A stretch of DNA of 64,000 nucleotides from Escherichia phage MLP3: sequence record OK148440, one strand, 5' to 3'. Below the pieces are notes generated by a model. It was not told the origin of the DNA and ran no database searches. It saw only the letters and a list, made by a program, of their open reading frames with translations. Positions 9,002 to 30,383 of this stretch are shown piece by piece; position 1 is the first letter of the stretch, and every line of letters starts with the position of its first letter. The position numbers and the translations under genes are program-made.

Positions 9002-9823
9002 TTATTCCCAAGTTTTATCTAACCATGACCAATCAAAGAGGTCACCTTCAGCTTGTCCAACGAAGAGCAATCGAGCGTTTTCTAACATCTTATCTTCTGC
9101 TTCTTCCTCGAACCTCTTATAGTATTCCATTCGTATAATATGATAAAGAGTCCACTTATCGAATACCTTCTCAATAAGTTTGATTGCAGCCTTGCTACCA
9201 ATGCCTTTACGGCGCATAACCAAGTTGCCACCCCACATCATTTCAACCTTCTCACCACAACCGGGAATATTATCTGTATTATCCCCAATCAACATTTGGT
9301 AGAAGAAATTCTGCCATGCTACTTCTTCTGATACATAATGAGGAGGTACTTCTTTCTGTCTTTCTCCACAAGCCCAACGATAATGCCATCCGGGAGTGAT
9401 TAACAAATCTTTATCACGAGTACAGATAATCGTATTCTTATCTCGTCTCTGTCTTTCAGCTAGGGCATCATCTGCCTCTCTCCCAAAGACTTCTACATAC
9501 TCGTAATTTTCTTTAATATAATCACTAACGTTCTGCCAGTGGTGGGGTCTTTCTCCCGGTGGGCGATTAGCTTTGTAGCCTTGCTGTTTAGCAATGTTAA
9601 ATCGAAAGTTACCACCTTCACTGAAGTAAAAGATTGTTTTCTCACAACCTGACCTTGCAATGATTACATCAATTTTGTGTTGAAGTCGTTCAATCAAGAA
9701 TCCATAATCAACTGGAACACGACCTGTGTCTAGAAAAGGATGCTCTTGTGTAAGAGCACCGACTTCATATCGCAGAACATCTGCATCCACAATTGCTACT
9801 TCAGGATAGATTACATCAGACAT
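9002..9823 (-). CDS. 5'-3' exonuclease / flap endonuclease (FEN family)
   Basis: GREADDALAE motif typical of 5' nuclease family; table start is TTG at 9850, ATG with GGAGAG RBS at 9823. Confidence 0.7.
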   Translation of the reverse strand: MSDVIYPEVAIVDADVLRYEVGALTQEHPFLDTGRVPVDYGFLIERLQHKIDVIIARSGCEKTIFYFSEGGNFRFNIAKQQGYKANRPPGERPHHWQNVSDYIKENYEYVEVFGREADDALAERQRRDKNTIICTRDKDLLITPGWHYRWACGERQKEVPPHYVSEEVAWQNFFYQMLIGDNTDNIPGCGEKVEMMWGGNLVMRRKGIGSKAAIKLIEKVFDKWTLYHIIRMEYYKRFEEEAEDKMLENARLLFVGQAEGDLFDWSWLDKTWE

Positions 9824-10412
9824 AGAGTTCTCTCCGTGTCCGTACAACAATCCAGTTTAAATAATCTACTGCATCTTCTACAGTAGAATTATTCGCTAGG
9901 TAGTATGTATTTCTCTGACTACCTTCAATGTAGGAACGAGAATCTCCTTTAAAATCACAACCTTCACGAATCACCTGAATTACCTGAACATGGAAATGTT
10001 TCTCTAGTTCTTCAACTTCGGCTTTGAACCCACCATCAGAGAAGACGATAACATCATTCTGTGATGGGATACGTTGTTGAATACTGCTAACAGCAAGTTT
10101 ACCCATGCAGGTCTCACCAAACATAGGCTTCAGGTAATTCTCGCTAGTTGCAATCATCAAGTCTCGAACTGACTTACCGTCCCATTCAGGACGGCTATGT
10201 TCTTTCCACTCACGATCGTTGTACAGCTCCATGAACTCATAAAGAGGTAGACCTAATGCAGCAGCAGCCACTCGATACATAGGCTCCTTAAAAGCCTTTA
10301 CATGAGGCCTAAACTCGGTGTTACCAAGTGTTTTCTCTAACCAAGAATTAGCGATTGTATCTTTACCACAACCCGGTGGTCCATTCAGAATTACTACTAA
10401 TGGTTTACTCAT
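9816..10412 (-). CDS. P-loop nucleotide kinase (dNMP kinase-like)
   Basis: Walker A GPPGCGKDT near N-terminus; about 200 aa. Confidence 0.5.
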   Translation of the reverse strand: MSKPLVVILNGPPGCGKDTIANSWLEKTLGNTEFRPHVKAFKEPMYRVAAAALGLPLYEFMELYNDREWKEHSRPEWDGKSVRDLMIATSENYLKPMFGETCMGKLAVSSIQQRIPSQNDVIVFSDGGFKAEVEELEKHFHVQVIQVIREGCDFKGDSRSYIEGSQRNTYYLANNSTVEDAVDYLNWIVVRTRRELYV

Positions 10413-15572: not shown

Positions 15573-15784
15573 TGATCTTTCTCCTCTCGTTCAACCCATG
15601 TATGGAAAAGCTCCCCATACACTTTGGCATCATCAAAACGTCCTTCTTCCTGTGCGAGTTTTTGTTGCTTCAAGCACCATTCAGAACTTTTTACTTCTTC
15701 CACTTCCTTGTCTCCTTAAAAAGAACTAATCAATAAGACTAGTTCATTTCGTAATACGATTCAGCTCTTCCACTGAACTAATCA

Positions 15785-16096
15785 CTACTTCTCCACCACA
15801 AAGAGGTTAACTTCAATGAAAGTTTCGTATTGTGTTGACTCCTGCTTACGGGTGTAGTAGAAATGACGACCTTCTAATGCACCTCCGTACTGAGTGGCAC
15901 ATCTTTTAACCATCTCTTTTATCACATCTACAACTGATTCGCCTTTCCACGGACGTAACCCCTGAGTTGGGACTTTTGCTGTACAGGTTACTTGTGTGTA
16001 ACCTACATCTTGTAGAGATATCTCAAGAATCAGCTTTGCCCAAGCATCAAAATTAAGCTTGGGGTTATATTTAACTTCAGTTTTGATATCAATCAT
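15785..16096 (-). CDS. hypothetical protein
   Basis: ATG overlapping polymerase stop (TAATG). Confidence 0.45.
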   Translation of the reverse strand: MIDIKTEVKYNPKLNFDAWAKLILEISLQDVGYTQVTCTAKVPTQGLRPWKGESVVDVIKEMVKRCATQYGGALEGRHFYYTRKQESTQYETFIEVNLFVVEK

Positions 16097-17940
16097 TAGT
16101 GAGTATGATTCCAGTTTAATCCAATCTTACAATCTGATGCAAGAGGACATTCCATCTTGAGGTATTCCCCTGCTTTACGAACACATTCTTCAGTGAGGAT
16201 ACGAAGTTTGTTAACATCATCACGATGTACAGTGAACTGTCCTTCATCATGCATGTCAATAACCTTCGCACAACGAACACCATCCCGCTCAATCCATTTA
16301 TTGAGGAATAGCATTGCATACTTCATAACAATCGCCCCAGCGCTCTGTAAGAGTGTATTTAAGGCTTTATGGACCATAACCTTTCCAGTTGCATCTCTTC
16401 TCATTGTAATACGACGTCCATCCACACCGTAGATGTATCCACTTTGCGCTTTCTCTGTCATACGTTCAATAAGGATTGCAATACAAGGGTTCTCTGCTAA
16501 GAATCTTGCTCTCATGATAGCCCCTTCGTCAGAGCCACCACCTACAATACTTCCTAATTTAGCGTCACCTGCCCCATAGTTAAAGGCATATATAAACGTC
16601 TTAGCGTTATCACGAGTAGGAAGACCAGCAAGTTTTTGGTTATGTGAGTGAATGTCTCCTTCTAAAAGAATATCTCTGTACATAACAGCAGAAGCTAGAC
16701 CACGTTCAGCTTCTCGTTTCTTAGCCGGGTTGTTTTCTCGCTCTGCTTCAGCGAGCATCTCACGACATTCTTTAATAAGGTAGTGAGCTAGCATCCTCAG
16801 CTCAAGACCAGAGCCATCGTAACCTAAGAAGATTTCACGACCAGCAGGAACATAGAACTTATAGGCACCTACAGGTTTGTCTTTCTTGCCCGGTTTTCCC
16901 ACTTCGTAGATAATGTTAGTACCCTTTCGTACGTAACACCCATCAGGGATATGGTTGGTAATGATGAAAGGATGGTTATGACTATCGTCTGAGGAATAGT
17001 CAGATTGAAAAAGACTGCGGCACTCGTGACCAAACAAACCGCGAGAAGGAATATTAACAACAATGCGATGTTTAAAACGAAATGTCGGAGTAGCGCAGCT
17101 ATTAGCTTCGGCGGACAACTTACCATCTTTACGTTCCTTGTCGATAAGCCCGCTAATCAAACCTAGCCTGTGAGCCGCTACAACGCGTCTCTTAAGCAAA
17201 CTTCCTACACCCCCTAGCTCACCCCCAAGCCCCTCTTCAAGAGTCTCCTCAAGGTTTGTAGGGGCTGTGGGCCACTTGTTTGATGTAGCCAAAGCTTTTT
17301 TGATTTCATCAAAGGTTACAGGTTTCTTCCTATTCGGATTAAGACCTAAACCACTGACGTAGGCTTTCATGTAGTTGACAGTGTGATAACGGAAATGTTT
17401 ATCCAAAAATCTTCGGATATCAGCATCTATCATCTCCGCTGTCTGTTTCTCTTTAGCATTACCTCGAATCCAAGCAGAATACCATGCAGAGTATGTACCA
17501 TACTTCTTCATAGCTCTACGGATTTCAAATGTATTCCAAGGTTTCTTAGAATAATTCCACTCTGGAGGTATGAAGCCCTCATCCATCAAGGCTTCTTTAA
17601 TACGTGCATCTTTCGATGGGTCGAAGTCTACATACTCAACGCAAGTAAACGCCCCACCGATATCTTCTCTTTTAAGACCAACCCTATCGCAATAGAGCTG
17701 AGGCCACTTCTGTAAAGCACCTGATTTCTTAAAAGGCTTAGCATAAGTTGAACCATCCACCCGCATTTTAGGGAGGAGAGGAATCAGTTCTTTATCAATA
17801 TTGACAATAATCTCTTTGAGAAGGTGAACAAACCACCGAGCGTTTCTTCTGTTGAAGTTGACTCCATGCTTCGCTTGTTTTGAGATTATATCAGCGACTG
17901 TCATCTCCGTTATGAAAGGTAACTTATCAGGGTTATCCAT
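16096..17940 (-). CDS. DNA polymerase, family A, polymerase domain only
   Basis: motif A DGSGLELRMLAHY, motif B RDNAKTFIYAFNYGAG, motif C VIDMHDEG; ATG at 17940 with AAGGAG RBS (table start is GTG at 17943); no exonuclease motifs. Confidence 0.85.
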   Translation of the reverse strand: MDNPDKLPFITEMTVADIISKQAKHGVNFNRRNARWFVHLLKEIIVNIDKELIPLLPKMRVDGSTYAKPFKKSGALQKWPQLYCDRVGLKREDIGGAFTCVEYVDFDPSKDARIKEALMDEGFIPPEWNYSKKPWNTFEIRRAMKKYGTYSAWYSAWIRGNAKEKQTAEMIDADIRRFLDKHFRYHTVNYMKAYVSGLGLNPNRKKPVTFDEIKKALATSNKWPTAPTNLEETLEEGLGGELGGVGSLLKRRVVAAHRLGLISGLIDKERKDGKLSAEANSCATPTFRFKHRIVVNIPSRGLFGHECRSLFQSDYSSDDSHNHPFIITNHIPDGCYVRKGTNIIYEVGKPGKKDKPVGAYKFYVPAGREIFLGYDGSGLELRMLAHYLIKECREMLAEAERENNPAKKREAERGLASAVMYRDILLEGDIHSHNQKLAGLPTRDNAKTFIYAFNYGAGDAKLGSIVGGGSDEGAIMRARFLAENPCIAILIERMTEKAQSGYIYGVDGRRITMRRDATGKVMVHKALNTLLQSAGAIVMKYAMLFLNKWIERDGVRCAKVIDMHDEGQFTVHRDDVNKLRILTEECVRKAGEYLKMECPLASDCKIGLNWNHTH

Positions 17941-17956
17941 CACCCACTCCTTATAG

Positions 17957-18310
17957 TTATTGGTATATTAAGTCTGTGAATGCTTGGTTGTCTTCAACAA
18001 TATCTAAAGCTTCATATGAATCAGCCAATTCATCCACATAAAAGACTGCTGGAATATCTTCTGCTCGCTGTCTACGAGATTCCCTTTGTTCATTGATATT
18101 TCTTTGAACCTGTGCAAGTTTCATACCCCACACCTGCTCATACAACTCTGGATATTTGTCACTAACCACTACATAGTTTCGAGCTGGTTGGTTTCTATTA
18201 ATCTTCGCTGTCAACTCAATAAACTGGCGAAACTCTTGAATAGAGAGGTTGTCATGAATATTATCCCATTTGAGAACGCAGTGACGTTCTAGGCGTTGAG
18301 GTACTGGCAT
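17957..18310 (-). CDS. hypothetical protein
   Basis: ATG; 117 aa. Confidence 0.45.
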   Translation of the reverse strand: MPVPQRLERHCVLKWDNIHDNLSIQEFRQFIELTAKINRNQPARNYVVVSDKYPELYEQVWGMKLAQVQRNINEQRESRRQRAEDIPAVFYVDELADSYEALDIVEDNQAFTDLIYQ

Positions 18311-18313
18311 AAC

Positions 18314-18571
18314 TTACTCCACTGTCGGGAATGGTTTTAGGTTGTTCATGGCTGTACGAACATCAGCACAGATTTCAGGATCACGATAAGAGAGGAATTT
18401 ACCATCCTTACCACGAATCATTACATTAGTCCGTGCTGTTTTATTAGGCAATAAAGAAATCCCTCCAATAAGATGGTTGGTAGGGTGTTGTCCTTGATTA
18501 ACCTTGTAGTCATGAGTCTGAGCGTCACCATTAAAGAGATGATCACGAATTTGGATTAAGCTAATCTTCAT
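18314..18571 (-). CDS. small protein, paralog pair member 1
   Basis: shares KTARTNV.IRG.DGKF.S.RD...NLKPFP with 18573-18824. Confidence 0.45.
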   Translation of the reverse strand: MKISLIQIRDHLFNGDAQTHDYKVNQGQHPTNHLIGGISLLPNKTARTNVMIRGKDGKFLSYRDPEICADVRTAMNNLKPFPTVE

Positions 18572-18572
18572 A

Positions 18573-18824
18573 TTATGCACCAAAGTTAGGGAAAGGTTTC
18601 AGATTTTCAATAGACTTAGCAATACGCTTAGGAACAGCCTTATCACGGAAGGAGATGAACTTTCCATCAGGACCACGAAGGGCTACATTAGTACGAGCTG
18701 TTGTTTTGTTAAACTGAATCATCTCAACAGAGCTTGTAACATTTTCTACAGGAAAAGTATAGCTCTCAGTTGTGTTCAGAGAAGGGAGGAAATCAGTTAC
18801 AGTGATGTAAGTTACTTTAGACAT
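18573..18824 (-). CDS. small protein, paralog pair member 2
   Basis: tandem paralog; ATG at 18824 with AAGGT RBS (table start is GTG at 18860). Confidence 0.45.
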   Translation of the reverse strand: MSKVTYITVTDFLPSLNTTESYTFPVENVTSSVEMIQFNKTTARTNVALRGPDGKFISFRDKAVPKRIAKSIENLKPFPNFGA

Positions 18825-18845
18825 ATTTATTACCTTAGGTTCTAT

Positions 18846-18875
18846 AAAAGAAAAGGCCACCCGAAATGGGTAGCC
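18846..18875 (-). terminator. rho-independent terminator
   Basis: GGCUACCC-AUUUC-GGGUGGCC plus U-rich tail on minus transcript. Confidence 0.55.
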
Positions 18876-18880
18876 TTATA

Positions 18881-19198
18881 TCAACTTGAGCTTAAAGCTC
18901 CTTTGCGACCGCCTGCTGATTTTCCAGCACGATCTCCACTTTTGCCGCCGTTCGAGCGATTTCGAGAGACTGATTCAACACGTAAGTTACTTGACGCATT
19001 AGAACCTCCCGACTTGATTGATCGTTTGTGTCCAACATCTTTACCTCGGACAGCAGCTTTTCCATCGCGCTTTTCAACGATGCGACGTGCACGGTGGCGC
19101 TGAGCATCTCCGCTCTTGCTACCAACGCCGGTCTCACCCCTTGCGATTGCAGTTCTTCGTTCTTGTGCATAATCACGTTTCGCCTTATCGGTCATCAT
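18881..19198 (-). CDS. highly basic low-complexity protein (R/K/G/S-rich), possible nucleic-acid-binding
   Basis: ATG ATG with strong AAGGAG RBS; fully overlaps an alternative-frame ORF. Confidence 0.4.
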   Translation of the reverse strand: MMTDKAKRDYAQERRTAIARGETGVGSKSGDAQRHRARRIVEKRDGKAAVRGKDVGHKRSIKSGGSNASSNLRVESVSRNRSNGGKSGDRAGKSAGGRKGALSSS

Positions 19199-19242
19199 AA
19201 CTCCTTAATATATCAGTGTACACTAAGGAGTATACATTATGT

Positions 19243-19980
19243 TTATGATTTTTCAGATTCCATTGCTTTAACAATAGCTTTACAGAAACCTGAACGAACA
19301 ATATCATCTGATTCGCCATCTACTAGAGCGGCAAATTCAAATAACTGGTGACGGTAGATGAAATCAGTAGCCCAATCAAGACCGCTCTCACCACGCATGT
19401 CGTGCTGGTTAGTGTCCCCCATGCAGAACATCTGAGAGGTTTCACCAAGACGTGTCATGATTGAATATGCTTCATCAGGAGTAGTGTTCTGGAACTCATC
19501 AACAATCACGATAGCATCGTTGAACGAGCGACCACGTAGATATTCCAGAGGTACGAACTCAATATTACCATTACCTACTTGACATTCGTAGAAACCTTTA
19601 CCGTAGCGCTGAGTAATAACATCAACGATTGGCATTAGGTATGGTTCAAACTTCTCACGAAGCCCACCGGGAAGTAATCCAAGACTATTACCCATACCAA
19701 CAGCAGGTCGGCTTAGGATAATCTTCTCAATCTTCCCACTCTTCAGAGCATCGATCACTGTAGAAGTGATTACGAAGGTCTTACCACATCCAGCAGGAGC
19801 ATCTGTGAATACAACCTGTTTTGTTTTGATTGCATCAAGCAATTCACTCTGGAATTGGTTCTGAGGTACTACCGGCTTAGCAAGAACTACTTCTTCAAAT
19901 TCCCGCTTTCCTTTCTTGGTGACGAGAGCTTCACGACGTAATTCTCTCCGTGATGCTTTCCGAGATTCTCTACGACTCAT
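19243..19980 (-). CDS. phoH: PhoH-like ATPase
   Basis: Walker A APAGCGKT and PhoH-like central region. Confidence 0.8.
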   Translation of the reverse strand: MSRRESRKASRRELRREALVTKKGKREFEEVVLAKPVVPQNQFQSELLDAIKTKQVVFTDAPAGCGKTFVITSTVIDALKSGKIEKIILSRPAVGMGNSLGLLPGGLREKFEPYLMPIVDVITQRYGKGFYECQVGNGNIEFVPLEYLRGRSFNDAIVIVDEFQNTTPDEAYSIMTRLGETSQMFCMGDTNQHDMRGESGLDWATDFIYRHQLFEFAALVDGESDDIVRSGFCKAIVKAMESEKS

Positions 19981-20158
19981 TTCCTACCTCCGTGTTCTTC
20001 ATATAAGAAGCTACAGGATTTACACTCTGAGCAATGGATACCTATAACCTTAATTTCGACAAACTTCTTATTCTTCCCTTTAGTCGGGGAGCCTTTGGCA
20101 AGCTCCCGTATTACTTTCGAGTCCAAATGGAGAAGAGTTGATTCACATTTAAAACATT

Positions 20159-20479
20159 TCAGATTGATTTGTCCTTATGTAAACGGTATACTTCAGTAGC
20201 CATACAAGCTATACGCTCGTCATGTGGGAGATGCATACCAGTAGAGCCGTTCCATCCTTCGAACTCTGAATCAAAGAATCCAATAGGCTCGGGATACATC
20301 TCTTGCAAGGTGGTTAAGTCATCAGCCACTTGTTGCCATTTATCGTCAGACCAGATTGGGTCATCCAACCAATAATACAAATAGGAGTGGATAAGCATCT
20401 GTGTTCTATGTCGTTTAATCACTTCAGCAGGACTGATTTCATTTCCGTTACCAGTCCTAAATGTATTATTGTTGATCAT
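20159..20479 (-). CDS. hypothetical protein
   Basis: ATG; 106 aa. Confidence 0.45.
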   Translation of the reverse strand: MINNNTFRTGNGNEISPAEVIKRHRTQMLIHSYLYYWLDDPIWSDDKWQQVADDLTTLQEMYPEPIGFFDSEFEGWNGSTGMHLPHDERIACMATEVYRLHKDKSI

Positions 20480-20955
20480 TCCAAAACCCTTTCTTCTAAA
20501 TCATAAAAGATTTGATTTGTCCCATTATTCTCAACAAGCACTGTTCCATTATCTAGCAGGGTAGCAACTTGGGAATAAGGAATGTTCTTTAACATCAGAG
20601 CATTAATGGTCGGCTTGTTTTTGAAGTAAGCGACAGGCTCAACATAGAAGGAAATCCCACGACTTCCTTTAATTGGGGTGCTTGAAGATAGAACCCAAAT
20701 TGTTTCTGGCTTGTCTATTTCCTTTTCAACACCAACCTCAACAAGCGAGTCAGCAGCGAAACCTACAGGACGACTAGAAGAGCCAAGCGCCCGAATAAAT
20801 CCCGGTAATTTTGACATATTAGACCAACTACCAGTGTTTTCATTAAACACAGGTCTTACATCACCATATGCCCAAACCAGATTATCATAGTCACGGGCTA
20901 TGTATTTGGTCCAATCAGGAACATCATACTCTCTTCCTTCAAAAATAGCTTTCAT
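20476..20955 (-). CDS. hypothetical protein
   Basis: ATG; ATGA overlap. Confidence 0.45.
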   Translation of the reverse strand: MKAIFEGREYDVPDWTKYIARDYDNLVWAYGDVRPVFNENTGSWSNMSKLPGFIRALGSSSRPVGFAADSLVEVGVEKEIDKPETIWVLSSSTPIKGSRGISFYVEPVAYFKNKPTINALMLKNIPYSQVATLLDNGTVLVENNGTNQIFYDLEERVLE

Positions 20956-21150
20956 TTAGATAACCTTGTGCTTGTAGATGCTAGGGTTGAAGTAATGCAA
21001 CCAGTTTATGTATTGTTTCTGTTCAAGGTAGTGTCTGCAATCATGACAAAAAGCATGACCCAAACCTGTTTCCTCGTTCAGCTTGAAGTTGATAAGAAGC
21101 TTCTGCTTTTGACAGAAGCTACATGCTTTAGTGGGCTTCACGTAGTGCAT
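20956..21150 (-). CDS. small Cys-rich protein (start uncertain)
   Basis: CSFCQK...CHDCRHY; long table ORF overlaps ThyX-like 3' end, so internal start chosen. Confidence 0.3.
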   Translation of the reverse strand: MHYVKPTKACSFCQKQKLLINFKLNEETGLGHAFCHDCRHYLEQKQYINWLHYFNPSIYKHKVI

Positions 21151-21778
21151 CCCATGAGATTGGGAAAAGTTTACGAAGCTCTTCATCAACAGTTGATGCG
21201 AACACTCGTACTTCATACTGAGCATGGTCGGACAGTCGCTGACGACATAACTCTGACCAGCCATATAAAGAACCTGTCCACACCCACTCAGTGATCATAC
21301 CTTGAGGTAGAACGAATCGGGCTTGCTCTGGAGCAATAAACTTAATCAACTCATCATATGACTCAAGAGCTGTTTCATATGCCCGATTAATCAGAACTAG
21401 TGCAGAGTTTTGCGCTCCTGTGGTGAGGAGATTCCCCGCACCTGCATGGAGGTCCGAAGGTCTTTCAAAAATCTCTTTAGGGATGAAGAGTTCAACTGCT
21501 CCATCTTTATACCGCCGGGACATTTCGTTCCACGAGAATCCAACTTGATGCTTGCCCAGCTGTCTCGCAATTGCGATTGGCGCTTTGCATCGGAAGCTAA
21601 TTGTCGGATGGCGGAATGGTGTGACATGCTTTTCTCTGGCAAGGAACTTGATAAGGCGTTCATCTCGTTCATTTAACTCTCCTTCACGAGTAACCCCAAA
21701 GGAAACTCGAGCTGCATTAACAACAGATTTATCAGAACCCATTGCTTCAATTAGTGTTGCTTGTAATTGTTCGTTCAT
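21128..21778 (-). CDS. thyX: flavin-dependent thymidylate synthase-like (ThyX family)
   Basis: HVTPFRH...KAPIAIARQLGKHQVGFSWNEMSRRY aligns with the ThyX core; canonical RHR appears as KHQ. Confidence 0.65.
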   Translation of the reverse strand: MNEQLQATLIEAMGSDKSVVNAARVSFGVTREGELNERDERLIKFLAREKHVTPFRHPTISFRCKAPIAIARQLGKHQVGFSWNEMSRRYKDGAVELFIPKEIFERPSDLHAGAGNLLTTGAQNSALVLINRAYETALESYDELIKFIAPEQARFVLPQGMITEWVWTGSLYGWSELCRQRLSDHAQYEVRVFASTVDEELRKLFPISWDALREAH

Positions 21779-21792
21779 CCTTGAATTCTTCC

Positions 21793-22008
21793 TTAGTAAT
21801 GAATCTTTTTATAAATCAGGTTGCTTCCACTTTCTGTTTCAATCCCTTTCTGGATTGTAATCTTAGAAGCACCGGTATTAGCAATTTTTAAAGCTCGTTT
21901 AAAGCGGCGAGCCTCTCTCCGTGTTGTGTATGAGGAGAAGCTAGGGATTGTACTATCAAAATTAAACCACTTAACTACCCAAAAAGTAATCCAAGGTTTC
22001 TTTTCCAT
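21793..22008 (-). CDS. small protein, TRQEAR-motif paralog family member
   Basis: shares W..W...TR(Q/R)EAR..K...KI.I.K...SG..(V/I)(H/Y)Y with 23665 and 23880 genes. Confidence 0.45.
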   Translation of the reverse strand: MEKKPWITFWVVKWFNFDSTIPSFSSYTTRREARRFKRALKIANTGASKITIQKGIETESGSNLIYKKIHY

Positions 22009-22009
22009 A

Positions 22010-22285
22010 TTAAATACCTTTCAGAGCTATATCTAAAAACGCACGGAGGTTTGATTCAGTTTGCATACCGGACAAGCTGTAGTGAGCACCACTGTTCATA
22101 TTAGGAACTACAAAGGCTGGGATACTACGAACACCGTATTCAACAGCTCGCTCTCGACCATCACCTTCAGTGATATTCACTTCTTCAACCTCTACGTTGT
22201 AATCAGCTACAACTTTCTTAAACACAGGAGCCATAGCTGCACAGGGTGCACAGGAATTACTATAAAACTTAATAACTTTACTCAT
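22010..22285 (-). CDS. thioredoxin/glutaredoxin-like protein
   Basis: CAPC active-site motif near N-terminus; ATG at 22285 with AAGGA RBS. Confidence 0.7.
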   Translation of the reverse strand: MSKVIKFYSNSCAPCAAMAPVFKKVVADYNVEVEEVNITEGDGRERAVEYGVRSIPAFVVPNMNSGAHYSLSGMQTESNLRAFLDIALKGI

Positions 22286-22462
22286 TCTATTCCTTGTTAA
22301 TAAACAGATTGATATGACGCTGGGTAGCAGGAACAACAATAAAAGACTTATACTGCCCTTTTGCTAAATCATGGGCAATCTTCTTCGTCTGACCAAGACC
22401 CATTACACAGCCACTAACGATAATGGCATGTGCTTGTAGCTCTTCAGGGAGGCTTAATTTCA

Positions 22463-22684
22463 TTATGCAGTCCACAGGTGGAGAAGGAAAGGAATCACAA
22501 CAGAGAAGACTACCAGAGCAATGCTGCCATGTTTAATGGGTTTAGCGTCATTCGGGTTCTCTTTAAGCATCTGTTTCTGAGCTACATAAACGATACCGCC
22601 AACAAAAATTGCCCATACAGACCATACGATTGCTGAAAACATACTCATATCCTTATAAAGAAGTTCGCCCCACCTCTTGAACAA
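22463..22684 (-). CDS. small membrane protein (two predicted TM helices)
   Basis: hydrophobic segments; start not verified. Confidence 0.4.
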   Translation of the reverse strand: MFKRWGELLYKDMSMFSAIVWSVWAIFVGGIVYVAQKQMLKENPNDAKPIKHGSIALVVFSVVIPFLLHLWTA

Positions 22685-22705
22685 AGAGACAGGGCGGAGG
22701 TTTGA

Positions 22706-23281
22706 TTAGTAAGACACGTCACCACTGGAGTGGGACATGTTGCTCTTGACGAAGTAACAGAACTTGCCAAGACCTTCATTAATTTCTTGAAGCATACTCT
22801 GATCAACTGGATAGGTGCACAAGTCTGAATCAAACTCGTCCATCTTCTCAATGATACACATAAGAGTCATGCACATGTCGGAAAGCATACCGTCCATGTC
22901 GAGATCAGCGTTACCTTCTCGGAACCAAGCGTGACCTAAATAGTTACTAGCAGTGGCATCCACCTTAACACAATGGAAGCGCATACGCTCTGCTATTCGG
23001 TCGCCTGCCTCACGGGCATAATCTTCTAGTTCATCGAACATACCATGAACACCTTGGAAACCAGCTCCAGAGACGTTCCAGTGGTAGTTCTTTGCTTTGA
23101 TGTGTAGAAGTTCAAGGTTAGCCTGCACACCACAAAGAATGTGCTCTAGGCTGTTACTGCTAATCAGTTTATTCATTCCCTCAAGACGAGAGATAGAAGA
23201 ATCAGTAGTAGAGAATGGATTACTAGAACCCACTCTTGTTAGTTCTGGTAAGTCGAAGACATTATTATGCATTAGGTGCAT
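22706..23281 (-). CDS. Dps-like ferritin-fold protein
   Basis: YHWNVSGAGFQGVHGMFDELEDYAREAGDRIAER resembles the Dps signature. Confidence 0.65.
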   Translation of the reverse strand: MHLMHNNVFDLPELTRVGSSNPFSTTDSSISRLEGMNKLISSNSLEHILCGVQANLELLHIKAKNYHWNVSGAGFQGVHGMFDELEDYAREAGDRIAERMRFHCVKVDATASNYLGHAWFREGNADLDMDGMLSDMCMTLMCIIEKMDEFDSDLCTYPVDQSMLQEINEGLGKFCYFVKSNMSHSSGDVSY

Positions 23282-23612
23282 CCCCTTCTAAGTTAGTTGA
23301 ATTAGCTACATTACGAGCAATGTTATCCATGACCTGCTGTGTAATAACAATGCAATTCTGAGGGTCTACCGATTTAGAACGCCCCATCTCAGGGTCATAG
23401 ACTTTGACTCGCTTGGCTGTTGAGCCAGTAACTTGCAACACTTTGAGAAGATAACCTTGGTTTCCAATAGACCATGCAACAACATCACGATTCTTGATAT
23501 AACGACCAAGCATATCACGATGATAGAACTGCTGCATAACTTTAGCTTTGCTAATCTCTTCAGATGGCGGGGCCACTTTACTCAAATCTAACATAACTCT
23601 CTCCTGTTTCAT
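23265..23612 (-). CDS. hypothetical protein
   Basis: ATG with GGAGAG RBS. Confidence 0.45.
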   Translation of the reverse strand: MKQERVMLDLSKVAPPSEEISKAKVMQQFYHRDMLGRYIKNRDVVAWSIGNQGYLLKVLQVTGSTAKRVKVYDPEMGRSKSVDPQNCIVITQQVMDNIARNVANSTNLEGDAPNA

Positions 23613-23628
23613 ACAATATTCTTATACT

Positions 23629-23640
23629 GTATATACATTT
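23629..23640 (-). promoter_or_regulatory. AAATGTATATAC motif (TAATGTATATA-like) upstream of 23265-23612 gene
   Basis: near-exact motif about 17 nt before RBS. Confidence 0.3.
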
Positions 23641-23664
23641 GAGAGTTATCATATCTACTACCAA

Positions 23665-23880
23665 CTAGTAATAAACCTTGCTGGATATGAATCCAGCACT
23701 GTTATGGATATTTTCAATCCAACGATGAATCTCCACCTTTTCAGCGATTCCTAAAGCTTTTGTAGCTTTTATAGTTTTCTTAGCAAGACGAGCCTCTTGT
23801 CTTGTGTTGAATAATTGAATACAATCACCACCAAGAGTTTTGTTAGCCCATTTAGTACGAACTGCCCATAATTTATCCAT
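23665..23880 (-). CDS. small protein, TRQEAR-motif paralog family member
   Basis: paralog alignment. Confidence 0.45.
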   Translation of the reverse strand: MDKLWAVRTKWANKTLGGDCIQLFNTRQEARLAKKTIKATKALGIAEKVEIHRWIENIHNSAGFISSKVYY

Positions 23881-24092
23881 TAGTAATGTACCTTTCCGCT
23901 GATATAGAAACGACCTGATTTAAAGTCTTGAGCTTTGTGGATAGTGATCTTATTAATTGTGCTTTCACAACTTAATAAGAACTTCTTATGAGCGCGAGCT
24001 TCTTGACGGGTATTCCTAATACCCATTGACTCTGTACCACTGCTCCAGTGAATACGAACTACCCAACGTCTTTTCATTGTTCCAAACTCCAT
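23880..24092 (-). CDS. small protein, TRQEAR-motif paralog family member
   Basis: paralog alignment. Confidence 0.45.
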   Translation of the reverse strand: MEFGTMKRRWVVRIHWSSGTESMGIRNTRQEARAHKKFLLSCESTINKITIHKAQDFKSGRFYISGKVHY

Positions 24093-24283
24093 TATCTGTC
24101 AACCGATTTAGGGACAAACTGCATTACACAGACCTGACTACGAGGGAGATTTATTTCACAAGCGGCTCTTCTCGTCTCAATCTTAACGCTAGAATCTGGA
24201 CCAACGTTAGATATAAATACTCCCATAGCAAATGCCCCAACTACAAAACCTATAGCTAAGTAAGTAGCTTTTTCTTCTTTCAT
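24092..24283 (-). CDS. small membrane protein
   Basis: ATG; one hydrophobic helix. Confidence 0.4.
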   Translation of the reverse strand: MKEEKATYLAIGFVVGAFAMGVFISNVGPDSSVKIETRRAACEINLPRSQVCVMQFVPKSVDR

Positions 24284-24288
24284 CTTGG

Positions 24289-24822
24289 TTATACACCCTT
24301 AGATGCAACTACACCATTACTGCCGTTGTATCGACCCTTCACTGCATAAGAGTCATCACCAGCGTGAGAGTGTTCGAACATAACCATTTGACCAACACGC
24401 ATCCCAGCACGAACTCGTAAGCTATGATTATGGGTAACGTTATGAAATTCAAAGGTTAGTTTACTGCTGTTAAACCCTGCATCAGCCCAACCAGCATGGA
24501 GGTGGTTTAAACCACAACGAGCCATTGAGGAGCGAAGTACAAACAGGCTTGAGATGTTATCTGGAAGGTTAAACTCTTCCATTGAGTGCGCTAAGAAGAA
24601 TTGCCCCGGAGTGATAACAATACCATCTTCAGGGATTTTTACTTCTTTCCACTTGAGGTTTTCTTTAGCATCAATGTCAACAATTCCGTCAGCCTGTTCT
24701 TCAACAAGGATAGTATCACCAATACGGATATCCACGCTAGCAGCGTTAACATATTTATGCTCCGCATCTAAAAAGCCATTATCAATAACGCTGTGTAATT
24801 CTTGAGAACCTAAAAGACTCAT
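24289..24822 (-). CDS. dCTP deaminase / dUTPase superfamily protein
   Basis: N-terminal NAASVDIRIGD as in dCTP deaminases; about 177 aa. Confidence 0.6.
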   Translation of the reverse strand: MSLLGSQELHSVIDNGFLDAEHKYVNAASVDIRIGDTILVEEQADGIVDIDAKENLKWKEVKIPEDGIVITPGQFFLAHSMEEFNLPDNISSLFVLRSSMARCGLNHLHAGWADAGFNSSKLTFEFHNVTHNHSLRVRAGMRVGQMVMFEHSHAGDDSYAVKGRYNGSNGVVASKGV

Positions 24823-26255
24823 GAGTTTCTGTTTCCTTGTACAGATGATGCCAAATTATTAATCATGTTACGAGCTGTTTCACGAGATAGTGTAACACCT
24901 GCTAAGTTGTTATGAAGCTCACCAGATAGCTCACGAGCAGCAGCTCGAAGTTCTGTACCAAGTGTAGTATCGGAGTGAGCCAAACCATTACGACGACTAT
25001 AAGGTCGAGGAGCTTCGTTAGCGTCATTAGCCAATGATGCAAAACCAATACGAGCAGCTTCACGAGCCGCTATAGTTGACACTCGATCTTCCGTAGGGGT
25101 TGGCAAATCACCAACTTCTACACGTTCTATATCACCAGCACGTAGACCCTGAGCGACTGAGCTTACTGTTTCCCATGAACGACGAGAACGCTGTAAATCA
25201 CCCATTGACGGAGAAGGAATAGGACGAGCAGTTCCTCCTTGGACATGCCATGTACGAGTATCCATTCCAGAAGAGCGTGCACTACCAAAACTGCCAGTGA
25301 AAGTGTCACGAGGTGCCATTGTAGGAGGAACTGCGAATCTTTCCTGTTGCCAAGAATCGCGTCTGTTAGTTCCCGGAGTCCAAGGTTGTTCAATTGCTTC
25401 AGCACCGATAGTAACTAATCCACTAGACCATTCTGTCTGTAGGTTAACTTCTTCATCAAGATAAATACGACCCCTTTCCTGAGGAATATTTAATGCAACC
25501 TCCATCATCTTCAGGGTATAATGACGACGTTGATTCTGGTATAAGTTTACACCAGCCATAGGTCCAACTAACTCACTGATTGGATAAACTTCTGGCTCAC
25601 CAAAAGCACCCATCGCAAGGTGCATGTATTCGGTAGAACTGCTATAAACTGCAACAGTTGCTTCAGGCCACTTTTTGTAGACATACTTCATTTCACGGCC
25701 TGTCACCACAGGGATAGAATCAGTATATGCCATTGCAAACAAACCTTCGTTTGACACATACATATCATTAAGAGTCATAAATCCTTGACAGATCATAGGG
25801 AAACGACGACTCAAAGTATCCATATCCAAAGGTAGATTAATCATCATCTGGATTTTAACTTGATCAATCTCAATTTCCAGAATCTCTTGGAAAGTGAAAA
25901 GTGATTCAGTATAGGTTGTTCCACTGATAGGCTGAACTAAGCGAGATGTGGTTTGAAGTCCTTTACTTTCTGTCCAAGATAAGAAGTTGTCAAGGAAAAG
26001 TGCAGCATTACCTGCGTTAGCAGGGCTGTTTTCCTGACGAGTGTTCCAACGAAACCCTCCTTGAACTAGGAAGATATCAACATCATTCGGAGTTCGATTT
26101 TGGAAGAACGTATCACGGATAGCACCACCTGCAATAACAGGATAGATGCCATCAGGAACTACGTTGTCTCTGATCAGATTGCGAATCAGATCAAGCCCTA
26201 CGCTGAGGGCTTCTCCTTCTTGAAGGTTTAATTCAGACAATGGAATCTTAATCAT
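24819..26255 (-). CDS. nucleotidyltransferase (pol-beta superfamily, CCA-adding / poly(A) polymerase-like head)
   Basis: IAGGAIRD...DVDIFL matches the GGxVRD...DxD head motif; C-terminal Arg/Ser-rich region; table start TTG at 26270, ATG at 26255. Confidence 0.5.
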   Translation of the reverse strand: MIKIPLSELNLQEGEALSVGLDLIRNLIRDNVVPDGIYPVIAGGAIRDTFFQNRTPNDVDIFLVQGGFRWNTRQENSPANAGNAALFLDNFLSWTESKGLQTTSRLVQPISGTTYTESLFTFQEILEIEIDQVKIQMMINLPLDMDTLSRRFPMICQGFMTLNDMYVSNEGLFAMAYTDSIPVVTGREMKYVYKKWPEATVAVYSSSTEYMHLAMGAFGEPEVYPISELVGPMAGVNLYQNQRRHYTLKMMEVALNIPQERGRIYLDEEVNLQTEWSSGLVTIGAEAIEQPWTPGTNRRDSWQQERFAVPPTMAPRDTFTGSFGSARSSGMDTRTWHVQGGTARPIPSPSMGDLQRSRRSWETVSSVAQGLRAGDIERVEVGDLPTPTEDRVSTIAAREAARIGFASLANDANEAPRPYSRRNGLAHSDTTLGTELRAAARELSGELHNNLAGVTLSRETARNMINNLASSVQGNRNS

Positions 26256-26257
26256 TT

Positions 26258-26806
26258 CTACATTTTCCAATTTAGAGATGGGGGATTCTTATAATCAAAT
26301 CCAGCCATTTGACAAAGACACATGTAAACTTTAACTGTCAAGTTAACGTCTTGCTCACAATAGGCGAACATGTCTTCAGTGAATGCGTCCCATGCCTCCT
26401 CCTGTTCTCCATAATCTCCTTTCAGCTCCCCAAGAAACTCGCCCCATTGTTTGAGGCCGTGACCACGAGGGCCATGTCTAGGGTCGCCTTTGGGGTATTC
26501 TGGACTATCACCAATACGGTCAGGCTTGAGATATCTACTCAGGCACAAAGTATCGAAGACGTTAAAGCGAAAAGGTATCACATGAGAATAAAACTTAAAC
26601 AAAGCAGGAAGGTCAAAATCAATAATATTGTGACCTATTACTACATCAGCTTCTTTCAGTTTGTGTAGTGCTTCTTCAATTTGGTGAGGGCGATACCCCC
26701 ACCGCTCTCCAGATAATACATCAAATATCCAGATACACCAGACATTCTGAATACCATCATAGAGATTATCCCCCTCAATATCAAACGCATACAGTTTCTT
26801 TACCAC
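26258..26806 (-). CDS. DnaQ-like 3'-5' exonuclease (stand-alone proofreading domain)
   Basis: Exo I FDIEGDN, Exo [13 protein letters not shown], Exo III YCEQDV; GTG start with GGGAGG RBS overlapping primase-helicase 3' end. Confidence 0.7.
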
Positions 26807-28590
26807 GGACGTGCCTCCCCTTCTTGTGCAAGTAAGGAAGCTGCATCCTCTCCATTGGTAACGGTAAAAGGATGCTCTTCATCAACTTCATGATCTTCTC
26901 GTTCTACAAGACGACCTGTTTCATTGATGTATTTGGTATAGCAAACCCCTGTCTGTCCATAGTTACGCTCTTTGAGCAGTCGTATGATTGACAAGTTTTT
27001 ACCTAACCCATCCGCTTGTTTGTTACGTTCAAAACCAATAATACACTGACACCAGCGCATCAATGAACGTGAACCAGTAAACTGTACTTCTTTAACCTGA
27101 CCACCTTCTTCGTGGGGTGCACCACCTGCCGGAGCGTTCAAGTGAGATAATACAAAAGCAGTGAAGTCTAATTCCTTACACATACCAGCAAGCTCTGAAG
27201 CAATCTTGCTGATTTCTGTGTTTACCTCAGATGGGGTTAAGTGAGATACCAATGCAGTGATGTTATCAAGAATGATAAATTTACACTGATTCTCAACTAC
27301 CCAAAAGCGAATACACTGCTTAATGTCTTCCCACTCGTTCTGCCCAAAGTTGTCATACAAGAAAAACTTATCAGCGTATCGAAGTGCTTCATCTCGTAGC
27401 TGGCTTTCTTCGTACTCAACATCCGGTCGGTGGAATGGAATAGATGCAGATTTACCTGCAATGTTCTTAACAGACATGCCTACCTTCTCTTCCAAGAAGA
27501 AGCCACCACCATTAAAACCATGCTCAAGGCAAAGCCATGCTACTAGTTCGTGTGCGATTAAGGTTTTACCTGAACCAACACCACCGCCGATTGCAACCAT
27601 CTCTCCCCAACGAATACCAAAGGTCATGTCGTTAAGAGTTTTCCACGGATAAGGAATACCCCATTCCGCTTTCTTCAGAGCATCTTCGAGGCAATCAAAA
27701 ACTGTAACAGCGCCGGCAGGAGATTCCCGCTTAGCTGAATACTTCAGATTGTTGAAAAGCTCTTGACCTCTCCCTGCAAGTAACATGTCGTTTGCATCTT
27801 TGATTTCCTTTTCTTGTCCGTTATAAGTGAACGTACCTTTTGGAATCCTTGCAAACTTAACATGCGGGTACAGAGAACGACCCTTAGTTAAAGCAATCTC
27901 ACCTGCATCATCATTGTCCATGCAGAGTACAATCTCCTCGAAACCATTAATAAAATCACGGTTTCTTGATAATACAGAAGAGATTGAACCTGCACCGAAC
28001 GGAAGAGAGACGCAAGCAGGTTTGATGTTAGTTGCGTTTGTAAACGCGGTAAGTACGTGGAACCCAGACATACAAGAGAGAGGATCTTCAAAGATGAAGA
28101 GTTTCTTGTTGTATACGTCACCACGTTGTGCTTGAGCCATACCAAACAAGTCGGCTTCTTTCACATTACCTACATAATAGAACTTCTTGCTGTCTAGAAG
28201 TTTTACTTCATATCCAACAATGTTCCCATCACGTTCACGAGGGAAGAAGTAGCTGTCAGGAGTTTGACCATCTGTTTGGCTTAAACCGATACGGCATCCA
28301 TAACGTTCAGATACAGCTTTAGGAATTAAGCGACGAGTCAACTCTCCCTGAGGAAGCTCTAAGCAATCGTCTAAGACTTCTCGGAGTTCTTCAGGGGACA
28401 GCTCTTTCTTTTCATTAGGAGTGGGCGTCGTTCCTTTCTCGAAGATTTCATACGCACCACATCTGTTACATGAACCCCACTCCTCACCGGACTCTTCATT
28501 TCGGAAGAGAATCATGTGATTGCGGGTCTTATCACGACCATGAGAGATACACTCTTTACAGCCTGTGTCTCCCAAAATGATCTTTGACAT
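26800..28590 (-). CDS. primase-helicase (T7 gp4-like)
   Basis: N-terminal Cys4 zinc motif, TOPRIM-like [10 protein letters not shown], Walker [10 protein letters not shown], Walker B FIILDNI. Confidence 0.85.
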
Positions 28591-28625: not shown

Positions 28626-28832
28626 TTAGTAAAACGATCGTATTTCTTCCCACACATCATCTTGCAAGTTTCTAAAACCCTGCAAGGTTTGCTTTGTTCT
28701 GTGAATAAATTCTTCAGAGTGCTTATCAGGTGTGAGCATACTGACAAACTTTTCATAGCGATTAATCTTCCACCGCATCTTCAAGTAGTCAGATTCCAGC
28801 TTTCTTAACTTCTGCCTGTCAGTTACTGTCAT
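28626..28832 (-). CDS. hypothetical small protein (start uncertain)
   Basis: table ORF overlaps neighbour; internal ATG chosen. Confidence 0.3.
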   Translation of the reverse strand: MTVTDRQKLRKLESDYLKMRWKINRYEKFVSMLTPDKHSEEFIHRTKQTLQGFRNLQDDVWEEIRSFY

Positions 28833-29250
28833 CCTTCTCACCTGCCAGATATGCTGTCCAGTCACCAGATTCAACCAGAACATCTTGTTCTTCGTCGATG
28901 TGATAAATCCATGCTTCCACAGTTTCACCGCTATCCAATAATACTGGAATCAGCGTACGCTTGTAAAAGGTGTATGGGTTATCATTACCACGATGACCTT
29001 CTAGACCGTCATACGGACCTTCCAGACCAGCTTGGGTTGTTTCAAAGACTTCTACACGAACAGGCTTACCATTGCTATCATGCTCCAAAGATACACTTGG
29101 GAAGTATGCTGTGCAATACTGATACAGGTTACAGTTGTTGACTGTCCACCCTTCACCAATAGACACACCACCTGCACGAGCGTTGATAGCGTGGTTGTGT
29201 TGACCTTTACGAAGAGAACCATACGTTGCAACTAATACTTTATCAGACAT
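28819..29250 (-). CDS. gamma-glutamyl cyclotransferase-like (GGCT/AIG2 fold)
   Basis: N-terminal VATYGSLRKG; about 140 aa. Confidence 0.6.
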   Translation of the reverse strand: MSDKVLVATYGSLRKGQHNHAINARAGGVSIGEGWTVNNCNLYQYCTAYFPSVSLEHDSNGKPVRVEVFETTQAGLEGPYDGLEGHRGNDNPYTFYKRTLIPVLLDSGETVEAWIYHIDEEQDVLVESGDWTAYLAGEKDDSN

Positions 29251-29254
29251 TACA

Positions 29255-29452
29255 TTACCTTTTGTTTAAGATTTCTTTTGTACAAGAAGTCCCGTTACAC
29301 ACGAGAATTGTTTGAGTTACAGAATCGACAACCGTTACATGACTGCCACATTGAGTTATGATTTGACCTCTCCCTGAATCTTTAGAGATACACTCATCAG
29401 CGGCAATTGCTGATACGCTGAACAAGGAGAGTAGGAGTAGAATCTTTTTCAT
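29255..29452 (-). CDS. small secreted Cys-rich protein
   Basis: signal peptide MKKILLLLSLFSVSAIAA; 4 Cys in mature part. Confidence 0.4.
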   Translation of the reverse strand: MKKILLLLSLFSVSAIAADECISKDSGRGQIITQCGSHVTVVDSVTQTILVCNGTSCTKEILNKR

Positions 29453-29458
29453 GGCAGC

Positions 29459-29875
29459 TTACCAATCATATTCGAAACCAGAATAGCCGGAGAAGAGGAT
29501 TGATCGGATTGTCTTTTCAGGAAATTCTTCAAAACTTTCCTTAATAGCCCCCTTGGTTTCATCAGACACTGATCCTTTTTCACCAAACCAATATTCTCCA
29601 AAAATGTCAGAGAAGGTATAGGTTCGATATTTTTCCAAGTAGTAACAACCTTCCACCGCATCGGTAACCTCCTCACTGATGACACAAGAAGCTACAGGGA
29701 AAAGTGAGCTGTGCTCCATAAACAAACACCAACGATTAAAGAGAGGAATCTCTTCATCTTTCAGAAGACTTTCTAATTCTTCCTTTGCCTCTTTCTTGTG
29801 CTTCTCAAAGAGGTTTTTGGAATACTCTACATCTAAGATATGGCTTTTAAACATATCCAGTTTATTGTCAACCAT
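29459..29875 (-). CDS. hypothetical protein
   Basis: ATG; 138 aa. Confidence 0.45.
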   Translation of the reverse strand: MVDNKLDMFKSHILDVEYSKNLFEKHKKEAKEELESLLKDEEIPLFNRWCLFMEHSSLFPVASCVISEEVTDAVEGCYYLEKYRTYTFSDIFGEYWFGEKGSVSDETKGAIKESFEEFPEKTIRSILFSGYSGFEYDW

Positions 29876-29932
29876 TTTACAACCTCCAGTTAAATTCGAA
29901 CTAGCCCCCTCTTTCGAAGAGGCTAAAGCAAA

Positions 29933-30118
29933 TTATTCTACTTCGAAGTGTTTGATCACACCAGTCAGTACATCAGATTGGAACGTACCTACTAGCTCTG
30001 TACCTCGGAAAAAGTTAACACTTGTTCCAAGTGATTCAAAGCGATCTGCTTGAATGTCCAGAGATTGAATATTTCCTTCTGCTGACATTGTACGAAACAT
30101 GATTGTGTATTTATTCAC
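29933..30118 (-). CDS. hypothetical small protein
   Basis: ORF only. Confidence 0.35.
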   Translation of the reverse strand: MNKYTIMFRTMSAEGNIQSLDIQADRFESLGTSVNFFRGTELVGTFQSDVLTGVIKHFEVE

Positions 30119-30357: not shown

Positions 30358-30383
30358 TACAAATTCCTTTTTGTTTAATTTAA

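Follow-up and report, generated by a model that had tools for sequence, protein, structure and literature searches.

The DNA analysed here (the window) is a 64,000-nucleotide stretch of Escherichia phage MLP3 (OK148440) that is 98% identical to the DNA of Escherichia phage IME267, and it very probably holds the DNA replication genes, as one module, of an E. coli podophage of the phiEco32-like type (Gordonclarkvirinae). The genes for a family A DNA polymerase and for a stand-alone DnaQ-like exonuclease lie about 8.3 kb apart in it, measured from the exonuclease stop at 26258 to the polymerase start at 17940, as the first-pass annotation had described. The features of the region are collected in Table 1.

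Table 1 Features of the window discussed in the text and the evidence for each
Feature	Position	Strand	Evidence or remark
5'-3' (FEN-type) exonuclease, T7 gp6 counterpart	9002..9850	-	PHROG 107 E 4e-61
T7 gp5-type family A DNA polymerase subunit lacking the exonuclease domain, 614 aa from ATG	16096..17940	-	Motifs, Pfam, PHROG, T7 gp5 alignment
Terminator-like hairpin	18877-18853		
PhoH-like ATPase	19243-19980	-	Pfam PhoH E 8e-56; absent from first-pass list
NAD-ligase Ia domain, stand-alone	20159-20479	-	Absent from first-pass list
Flavin-dependent thymidylate synthase (ThyX)	21128-21778	-	Pfam Thy1 E 1e-42
Phage thioredoxin, 91 aa, CAPC active-site motif	22010-22285	-	Pfam Thioredoxin E 2e-12
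Terminator-like hairpin	22696-22666		
Dps/ferritin-like protein, weak partial match	22706-23281	-	Pfam Ferritin E 7e-8, residues 59-102 only
dCTP deaminase-like protein (Dcd)	24289-24822	-	Pfam DCD E 1.6e-34; PHROG 1663
'Nucleotidyltransferase', 478 aa	24819-26255	-	PHROG 12715 only
3'-5' proofreading exonuclease subunit (predicted), 182 aa	26258..26806	-	Pfam, PHROG, motifs, fold
T7 gp4-type bifunctional primase-helicase, 596 aa	26800..28590	-	Pfam DnaB_C and Toprim_2; PHROG 239 'DNA primase/helicase' E 6e-175

The polymerase reading frame has an ATG at 17940 and a GTG just upstream at 17943. An AAGGAG ribosome-binding site stands 6 nt ahead of the ATG, which is also the start annotated in phages SU7 and IME267, and the extent first assigned to the gene was exact. 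In the 615-residue GTG translation, to which all polymerase residue numbers refer, motif A (GYDGSGLELR at 374, with D376 and E381), motif B (RDNAKTFIYAFNYG at 444, with R444, K448, and Y452) and motif C (H565-D566-E567) were all located as claimed, and these key residues are invariant across 45 exonuclease-less homologues. Pfam DNA_pol_A matched residues 363-612 with 83.7 bits (cut-off 34.3). The nearest relative is T7 gp5, whose Y526 corresponds to the motif B tyrosine, and the protein carries the palm aspartates of motifs A and C and the motif B R/K/Y of T7-like PolA cluster 5 (cd08643) but not the same-chain N-terminal 3'-5' exonuclease domain of that cluster, which already includes a variant with the exonuclease as a separate gene product (PMC10201439). 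A check of the polymerase frame for a hidden Exo domain by alignment to T7 gp5 found none: a profile of exonuclease-less polymerases aligned to T7 residues 212-704 only, and no exonuclease family in Pfam (E<=0.01) or exonuclease fold matched the protein. In the comparison with the T7 gp5 structure, 421 of the 615 residues aligned and further insertions were present. A vestigial exonuclease domain within the polymerase was rejected on this coverage and on the structural evidence. All of the best 120 homologues likewise lack the domain (369-618 aa), and the proteins of IME267, SU7, and others are 99.7% identical to that of the window.

The exonuclease gene starts with GTG behind a GGGGAGG ribosome-binding site, and its product contains the three Exo motifs expected from the first-pass annotation: Exo I (FDIEGD, with D9 and E11), Exo II (GHNIIDFD, with H59, N60, and D65), and Exo III (YCEQD, with Y149 and D153). 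These are the DxE, NxxxD, and YxxxD of a DEDDy enzyme, and all seven residues are invariant among 17 stand-alone homologues with identities down to 37%. The Pfam DNA_pol_A_exo1 match was barely over its cut-off (24.7 vs 23.6 bits), while the PHROG 'DNA polymerase exonuclease subunit' matched with E 1e-66 and a profile of stand-alone exonucleases aligned to T7 gp5 residues 2-197 with E 1.4e-33. The AF2 model (pLDDT 90.8) has the RNase H-like DnaQ fold; a Foldseek search with it returned T7 gp5 chains as the top 27 matches (E 3e-10 to 7.5e-8), followed by family B polymerase exonuclease domains, NrnC, and TREX-like nucleases. All 35 homologues are short (105-208 aa, and 163-208 aa in 34 of them). 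The 182-aa protein is predicted, with high confidence, to be the N-terminal, DEDDy 3'-5' proofreading exonuclease piece of a T7 gp5-type polymerase.

As the first-pass annotation had noted, the start of this gene overlaps the 3' end of the primase-helicase gene, whose product has an acidic C-terminus ending in ...EGEARPW. The exonuclease GTG shares bases with the primase-helicase TAA (cgtccGTGGTAAag, 7 nt, 26800-26806), indicating that translation of the exonuclease is probably coupled to that gene. The corresponding overlaps are 17 nt in LUZ24 and 56 nt in a distant contig. Between the exonuclease and the polymerase stand about 20 genes, all on the same strand, which encode small proteins and nucleotide-metabolism functions. 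The Dcd, ThyX, and thioredoxin genes reported there were each matched by Pfam; the Dps-like gene was recovered by a weak, partial match (NCBIfam Dps fell far under its cut-off, and PHROG 3636 is a 'DNA binding protein'), and the nucleotidyltransferase by PHROG only, with no relatives in Pfam, NCBIfam, or PDB sequences. The ATG of the latter lies 2 nt past the exonuclease stop, the same start as in IME267 gp068. Given the two terminator-like hairpins in this interval, the exonuclease and the polymerase may be expressed separately and their stoichiometry may not be fixed. A sigma-70 promoter scan was uninformative, with fewer matches (18) than in shuffled sequence (27.8). On the far side of the polymerase, the 5'-3' exonuclease completes a gp4-gp5-gp6-like module; its matches to Pfam 5_3_exonuc_N and the NCBIfam 5'-3' exonuclease were under cut-offs, and its counterpart in SU7, SU7_27, is annotated 'exonuclease'.

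Set side by side, the two products complement each other. On the PHROG 17 profile the exonuclease occupies positions 670-826 and the polymerase positions 837-1233, and in profile alignments they jointly span T7 gp5 with no overlap or loss, the break falling in the surface linker between the exonuclease and polymerase domains (T7 residues about 198-211). Neither gene is a chance reading frame, since dozens of deposited phages encode both with 80-99% protein identity, 8-9 kb apart in the same records. The stand-alone exonuclease and the exonuclease-less polymerase occur together in every relative examined, and distantly related phages keep both the split and the gene order. A 44-kb metagenomic contig has the order of LUZ24 (primase-helicase, exonuclease, polymerase, 5'-3' exonuclease). 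To count fissions, a neighbour-joining tree was built from the exonuclease domains of 159 proteins, both stand-alone and fused, and the window exonuclease grouped in a clade with 16 stand-alone members; a tree of so short a domain is weak, and noise and fragmentary reading frames have probably inflated its minimum of 25 state changes. A single fission shared by LUZ24 and the window's group is not proven, because LUZ24 gp25 was placed outside that clade.

The observation that this family A polymerase is divided between two genes is thus confirmed, and the interpretation first given to it is supported. We consider it highly likely that a T7 gp5-type polymerase is encoded here as two polypeptides that reassemble into a proofreading holoenzyme. 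The 182-aa and 614-aa proteins would associate non-covalently into a gp5-like enzyme, with the larger, C-terminal piece supplying thumb, palm, and fingers, and this enzyme would proofread as T7 gp5 does and act with the primase-helicase. The split itself would stem from an old gene fission followed by the insertion of genes into the gap.

The phage thioredoxin is a candidate processivity cofactor of this polymerase, a hypothesis stated previously (PMC7881722), and may be bound to a shortened insertion in the thumb that resembles a thioredoxin-binding domain (TBD). The polymerase has a conserved insertion of ~50 aa at the thumb tip (residues about 57-106), which appears, at the sequence level, partly similar to the T7 TBD: residues 65-133 aligned weakly to T7 296-360, and the profile segment 91-135 matched T7 318-363 with E 1.9e-7. 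Such an insertion is present in only part of the T7-like PolA family (PMC10201439).

Proofreading might instead be a replisome-level function that is regulated apart from polymerisation, with the phage thioredoxin as a third subunit. This reading draws on the long separation of the genes, probably transcriptional as well, and on the conserved translational link between exonuclease and primase-helicase, and we regard it as unlikely; if true, the phage could vary the exo:pol ratio, and hence fidelity, during infection. It is quite improbable that the 182-aa protein is an independent nuclease of repair, recombination, or host-DNA degradation, leaving an unassociated polymerase to replicate without proofreading. 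The 8.3 kb and the hairpins between the genes would suit such a nuclease, as would the NrnC and TREX-like DnaQ-fold proteins among the weaker structural matches, but what it most resembles in sequence and structure is the exonuclease domain of T7 gp5 specifically, it stops exactly at the start of the gp5 linker with the polymerase beginning just past it, and its constant company in the relatives is a polymerase without that domain. The exonuclease domain is, moreover, reported to be required for the stability of family A polymerases (PMC10201439). We find it very improbable that the exonuclease is attached mainly to the primase-helicase, as a trans-acting proofreader of the replisome and not a fixed polymerase domain: the stop-start overlap is kept in the window phage, LUZ24, and the distant contig, but overlapping genes indicate co-expression and not binding, and the homologous T7 domain packs on the polymerase, an interface retained in the S-SBP1 model. 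Joining of the halves after translation by a split intein, or after transcription, is scarcely credible, as is an assembly or frameshift artefact. Phage replication genes fractured with split inteins are reported (PMC2677866), and relatives have an intron in the polymerase gene, but no introns were found in the window by Rfam, and the exonuclease profile reaches to ~10 residues from each end of its protein and that of the polymerase begins at position 7, leaving no room for intein halves; an artefact is ruled out by the about 20 conserved genes that part the halves in >100 independent genomes. Both the split intein and the frameshift artefact were rejected on the complementary coverage of T7 gp5 and on the structural evidence.

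The two-polypeptide arrangement is already known in the phiEco32-like group. It has been noted in phiEco32-like and LUZ24-like phages since 2008-2012, was described in 2023 as shared by every Kuravirus-like phage, and has annotations in both RefSeq and PHROGs, so it carries little weight as a discovery. The survey of Czernecki et al. 2023 presented exo/pol splitting as first-seen and for adjacent genes only (PMC10201439). The split of the type found in the window is much older than that of S-SBP1-like phages, and its two genes lie much farther apart, which is a useful correction and not new knowledge. The phiEco32-like group would offer a convenient E. coli system for questions of exo/pol/thioredoxin assembly and fidelity tuning.

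Proofreading in trans is found elsewhere in E. coli Pol III (alpha/epsilon) and archaeal PolD (DP1/DP2), which belong to other polymerase families and are analogous, not homologous; the same holds for the phiKZ-like family B polymerases, whose exonuclease has an ORF of its own (PMC3201878). Both pieces find their best match, in sequence and in structure, in T7 gp5, which has the same catalytic motifs including Y526, and the window matches the T7 gene order gp4-gp5-gp6. T7 gp5 is, however, one 704-aa chain as opposed to two chains with extra insertions in the polymerase, its thumb insertion is 72-76 aa long compared to ~50 aa, and its thioredoxin is encoded by the host and not by the phage. The split PolA of S-SBP1-like cyanophages is also T7-like and family A, with the domains as separate products cut at the inter-domain linker and a shortened TBD, and its exo-pol complex, modelled with AlphaFold2, superposes on an unsplit relative (PMC10201439); there the genes are adjacent and parted by a recent +1 frameshift, whereas the window's split is old and spans 8.3 kb.

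Closer to the window, LUZ24-like phages (Bruynoghevirus) pair a 'DNA polymerase exonuclease subunit' (gp25) with a 'DNA polymerase part II' (gp34/36). In LUZ24 the primase-helicase gene is followed by the overlapping gp25, a 2.3-kb spacer, 'DNA polymerase part II', and a 5'-3' exonuclease, and the flanking amidoligase, gamma-glutamyl cyclotransferase, and 5'-3' exonuclease genes are shared with the window. The exonuclease-less polymerase is ~41% identical to the window's over 99% of its length, but gp25 is only 32% identical to the window exonuclease, and the LUZ24 spacer holds small ORFs where the window's 8.3 kb hold nucleotide-metabolism genes; the part of LUZ24 examined (8-26 kb) has no annotated thioredoxin, ThyX, or Dcd. 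The separation has been reported for phiEco32 and for the LUZ24 group (PMC3517423) and as common to all Kuravirus-like phages (PMC9965538). The phiEco32/Kuravirus-like pairs (IME267 gp069 and gp048, SU7_72 and SU7_51/49, YF01 gp70 and gp49) are the same genes as in the window, at 95-99.7% protein identity, with the same order, gap of ~8-9 kb, and primase-helicase overlap. In the SU7 polymerase gene, motif C is interrupted by a 607-bp intron-like insertion that holds an HNH gene and is missing from the window, and an endonuclease gene interrupts the polymerase gene in ECBP2, KBNP1711, and others; in essentially every other respect the window and these phages are alike.

The polymerase gene begins at the ATG at 17940, which has an AAGGAG ribosome-binding site 6 nt before it and corresponds to the start annotated in both SU7 and IME267. 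A GTG at 17943 is the earliest start codon in frame; the ribosome-binding site and the two annotations make the 614-residue frame of the first-pass annotation right, to the base. When numbered from the GTG (615 residues), residues 363-612 match Pfam DNA_pol_A (83.7 bits), with motif A as GYDGSGLELR (D376, E381), motif B as RDNAKTFIYAFNYG (R444, K448, Y452), and motif C as H565-D566-E567, and these residues are invariant among 45 aligned homologues with identity down to 41%. A Pfam search of the polymerase matched no exonuclease family, bearing out the description of a polymerase with motifs A, B, and C but without Exo motifs.

The predicted exonuclease carries Exo I as FDIEGD (D9, E11), the Exo II residues H59, N60, and D65, and Exo III as YCEQD (Y149, D153), as first described, all invariant among 17 stand-alone homologues with identity down to 37%. 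The start codon is a GTG, with GGGGAGG before it, and it overlaps the stop (TAA) of the primase-helicase gene (26800-28590) in the sequence GTGGTAA; the two genes belong to an overlapping or abutting run of primase-helicase, exonuclease, nucleotidyltransferase, and Dcd genes. The gap from exonuclease stop to polymerase start is about 8.3 kb, so the distance and the overlap with the primase-helicase 3′ end also agree with the initial reading. In these alignments, each active site is intact and evolves under purifying selection.

Profiles and co-occurrence are two of three independent lines of evidence that the exonuclease and polymerase are halves of one enzyme. On PHROG 17, a profile of T7-type polymerases, the exonuclease matches positions 670-826 and the polymerase 837-1233, adjacent and without overlap. 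HMMs were built from alignments of stand-alone exonucleases and of exonuclease-less polymerases, and each was aligned to T7 gp5, part of the check proposed at the outset. The exonuclease HMM covered residues 2-197 (E 1.4e-33) and the polymerase HMM 212-704 in colinear segments, without the exonuclease domain, placing the break in the linker of roughly 14 residues that joins the two gp5 domains, with no part missing or duplicated in the split pair. A split intein was rejected, as this coverage leaves no space for intein halves. All 35 word-indexed exonuclease homologues were 105-208 aa long (34 of them 163-208 aa), the exonuclease domain was absent from every one of the best 120 polymerase homologues (369-618 aa), and both genes occur in the same GenBank records, separated by 8-9 kb.

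Features of the split-polymerase region and other genes of the window
Feature	Coordinates	Strand	Remarks
Stand-alone predicted 3′-5′ exonuclease, 182 aa	26258-26806	-	Exo I-III motifs
"Nucleotidyltransferase", 478 aa, conserved	24819-26255	-	PHROG 12715 only
Dcd		-	After 478-aa protein (gap order)
Dps/ferritin-like protein	22706-23281	-	Partial; Ferritin/Dps and PHROG "DNA binding protein" matches
Thioredoxin, CAPC motif		-	After Dps/ferritin-like gene, before ThyX (gap order)
ThyX		-	After thioredoxin (gap order)
NAD-ligase Ia domain protein, 106 aa	20159-20479	-	Pfam Nlig-Ia, E 8e-34
PhoH-like ATPase		-	After NAD-ligase Ia gene, towards polymerase (gap order)
Polymerase, 614 aa	16096-17940	-	ATG start; Pfam DNA_pol_A
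5′-3′ exonuclease	9002-9850		
tRNA-Arg (anticodon TCT)	42788-42863	-	Single gene

From about 8 to 52 kb, every gene is on the minus strand. The Dcd-, ThyX-, and Dps-like, thioredoxin, and nucleotidyltransferase genes reported between the two halves were all found, the Dps match being partial and the nucleotidyltransferase resting on PHROGs; Pfam, NCBIfam, and PDB sequence searches with this 478-aa protein, which starts 2 nt past the exonuclease stop, gave no match. The RefSeq name "integrase" for the Dps/ferritin-like gene in IME267 (gp062) is unsupported by its matches. The 106-aa protein comprises only the NAD+-binding domain Ia of an NAD-dependent DNA ligase, without adenylation or OB domain; its SU7 counterpart is annotated as an entire "NAD-dependent DNA ligase". 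The gap also holds a dozen or so small ORFs (20 genes are annotated in this interval of IME267), and two adjacent ORFs immediately before the polymerase gene, 18314-18583 and 18573-18860 (minus strand), share PHROG 6814 as a match, making them tandem paralogues. Between the exonuclease and polymerase genes, the minus strand has two strong terminator-like hairpins (22696-22666, 13 pairs; 18877-18853, 10 pairs) with a T-rich tail after each, and the subunits may therefore come from different transcripts. The second hairpin is at the site of a terminator in the SU7 annotation.

The polymerase gene is interrupted in some relatives. In SU7, a 607-bp insertion (15696-16302 of the SU7 stretch examined) with an HNH endonuclease ORF falls precisely at the junction of the H and D codons of motif C, corresponding to 16249-16251 (H565) and 16246-16248 (D566) in the window gene, which lacks it. 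A T ends the 5′ exon and a G the insert, and the Rfam group I intron match is below threshold (26.3 bits, E 2e-4). Seven relatives' polymerase ORFs of 437-457 aa (P0049-P0052, P0123, P0127, P0132) end inside motif B (RDNAKTF|IYAF), at about 16580-16610 of the window (residues about 448-455), which suggests, from sequence, a second hot-spot for intron or homing endonuclease insertion into a catalytic motif.

By analogy, the exonuclease and polymerase would rejoin non-covalently as a gp5-like holoenzyme. For the split in cyanophage S-SBP1, the complex modelled by AlphaFold2 can be superposed on an unsplit relative; the authors of that study consider the exonuclease domain necessary for the stability of family A polymerases (PMC10201439). 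An insertion of some 50 residues at the thumb tip of the polymerase is conserved and can be aligned in part with the C-terminal half of the T7 thioredoxin-binding domain. The phage has its own CAPC thioredoxin, which the Privateer paper (PMC7881722) proposes as the processivity factor, a role that it might play through the thumb-tip insertion. The primase-helicase C-terminus (26803-26850, minus strand) is acidic with an aromatic last residue (...EGEARPW). The T7 gp4 tail, which contacts gp5, is also acidic but ends in Phe rather than Trp. The window tail would similarly contact the polymerase; the title of PDB 6P7E mentions a T7 gp4 tail peptide.

The observation is thus real, with coordinates right to the base, and its interpretation supported, but the arrangement is already known and annotated, and the split polymerase is of low interest. 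The 16-kb stretch around the genes shares 98% DNA identity with Escherichia phage IME267 and 92-98% with other Suseptimavirus or Kuravirus-like podophages (Gordonclarkvirinae, phiEco32 group), placing the split in a sequenced, annotated lineage. Separate polymerase and proofreading exonuclease genes were described for all LUZ24-group phages in 2012, in a paper whose text mentions a similar organisation in phiEco32, crediting Savalia et al. 2008 (PMC3517423), and S-SBP1-like phages have the split between adjacent genes (PMC10201439, 2023). RefSeq and BASEL-collection records, like PHROGs 38876 and 403, name the small protein "DNA polymerase exonuclease subunit".

Stand-alone exonucleases are common, as a profile search across 1.84 billion representative proteins shows: the best 150 matches include 40 stand-alone (<=230 aa) and 78 fused (>=550 aa) proteins. 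A neighbour-joining tree places the window exonuclease within an all-stand-alone clade, the number of fissions being beyond its resolution. An ATP-grasp/RimK-like, amidoligase, glutamine amidotransferase, and gamma-glutamyl cyclotransferase cassette upstream of primase-helicase (28819-31619, minus strand) is common to SU7, LUZ24, and a distant contig (238-2422, 1-5076, and 1424-8035, respectively, of the stretches examined). Most simply, a gp5-like gene would have split long ago at the domain linker and genes would then have built up in the gap, where the phiEco32 group would have gained its 8.3 kb of nucleotide-metabolism genes. In LUZ24 (Bruynoghevirus), amidoligase, RimK-like, and gamma-glutamyl cyclotransferase genes precede the primase-helicase, followed by the overlapping "DNA polymerase exonuclease subunit" gp25, small ORFs, "DNA polymerase part II", SSB, and 5′-3′ exonuclease, an order shared by the 44-kb metagenomic contig with the most distant exonuclease homologue. 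LUZ24 gp25 is 32% identical to the window exonuclease over its full length, and the polymerases of LUZ24-like phages align with 99% of the query at about 41% identity, whereas the LUZ24 spacer is 2.3 kb against 8.3 kb in the window. T7 has the same succession of primase-helicase, polymerase, and 5′-3′ exonuclease as gp4, gp5, and gp6.
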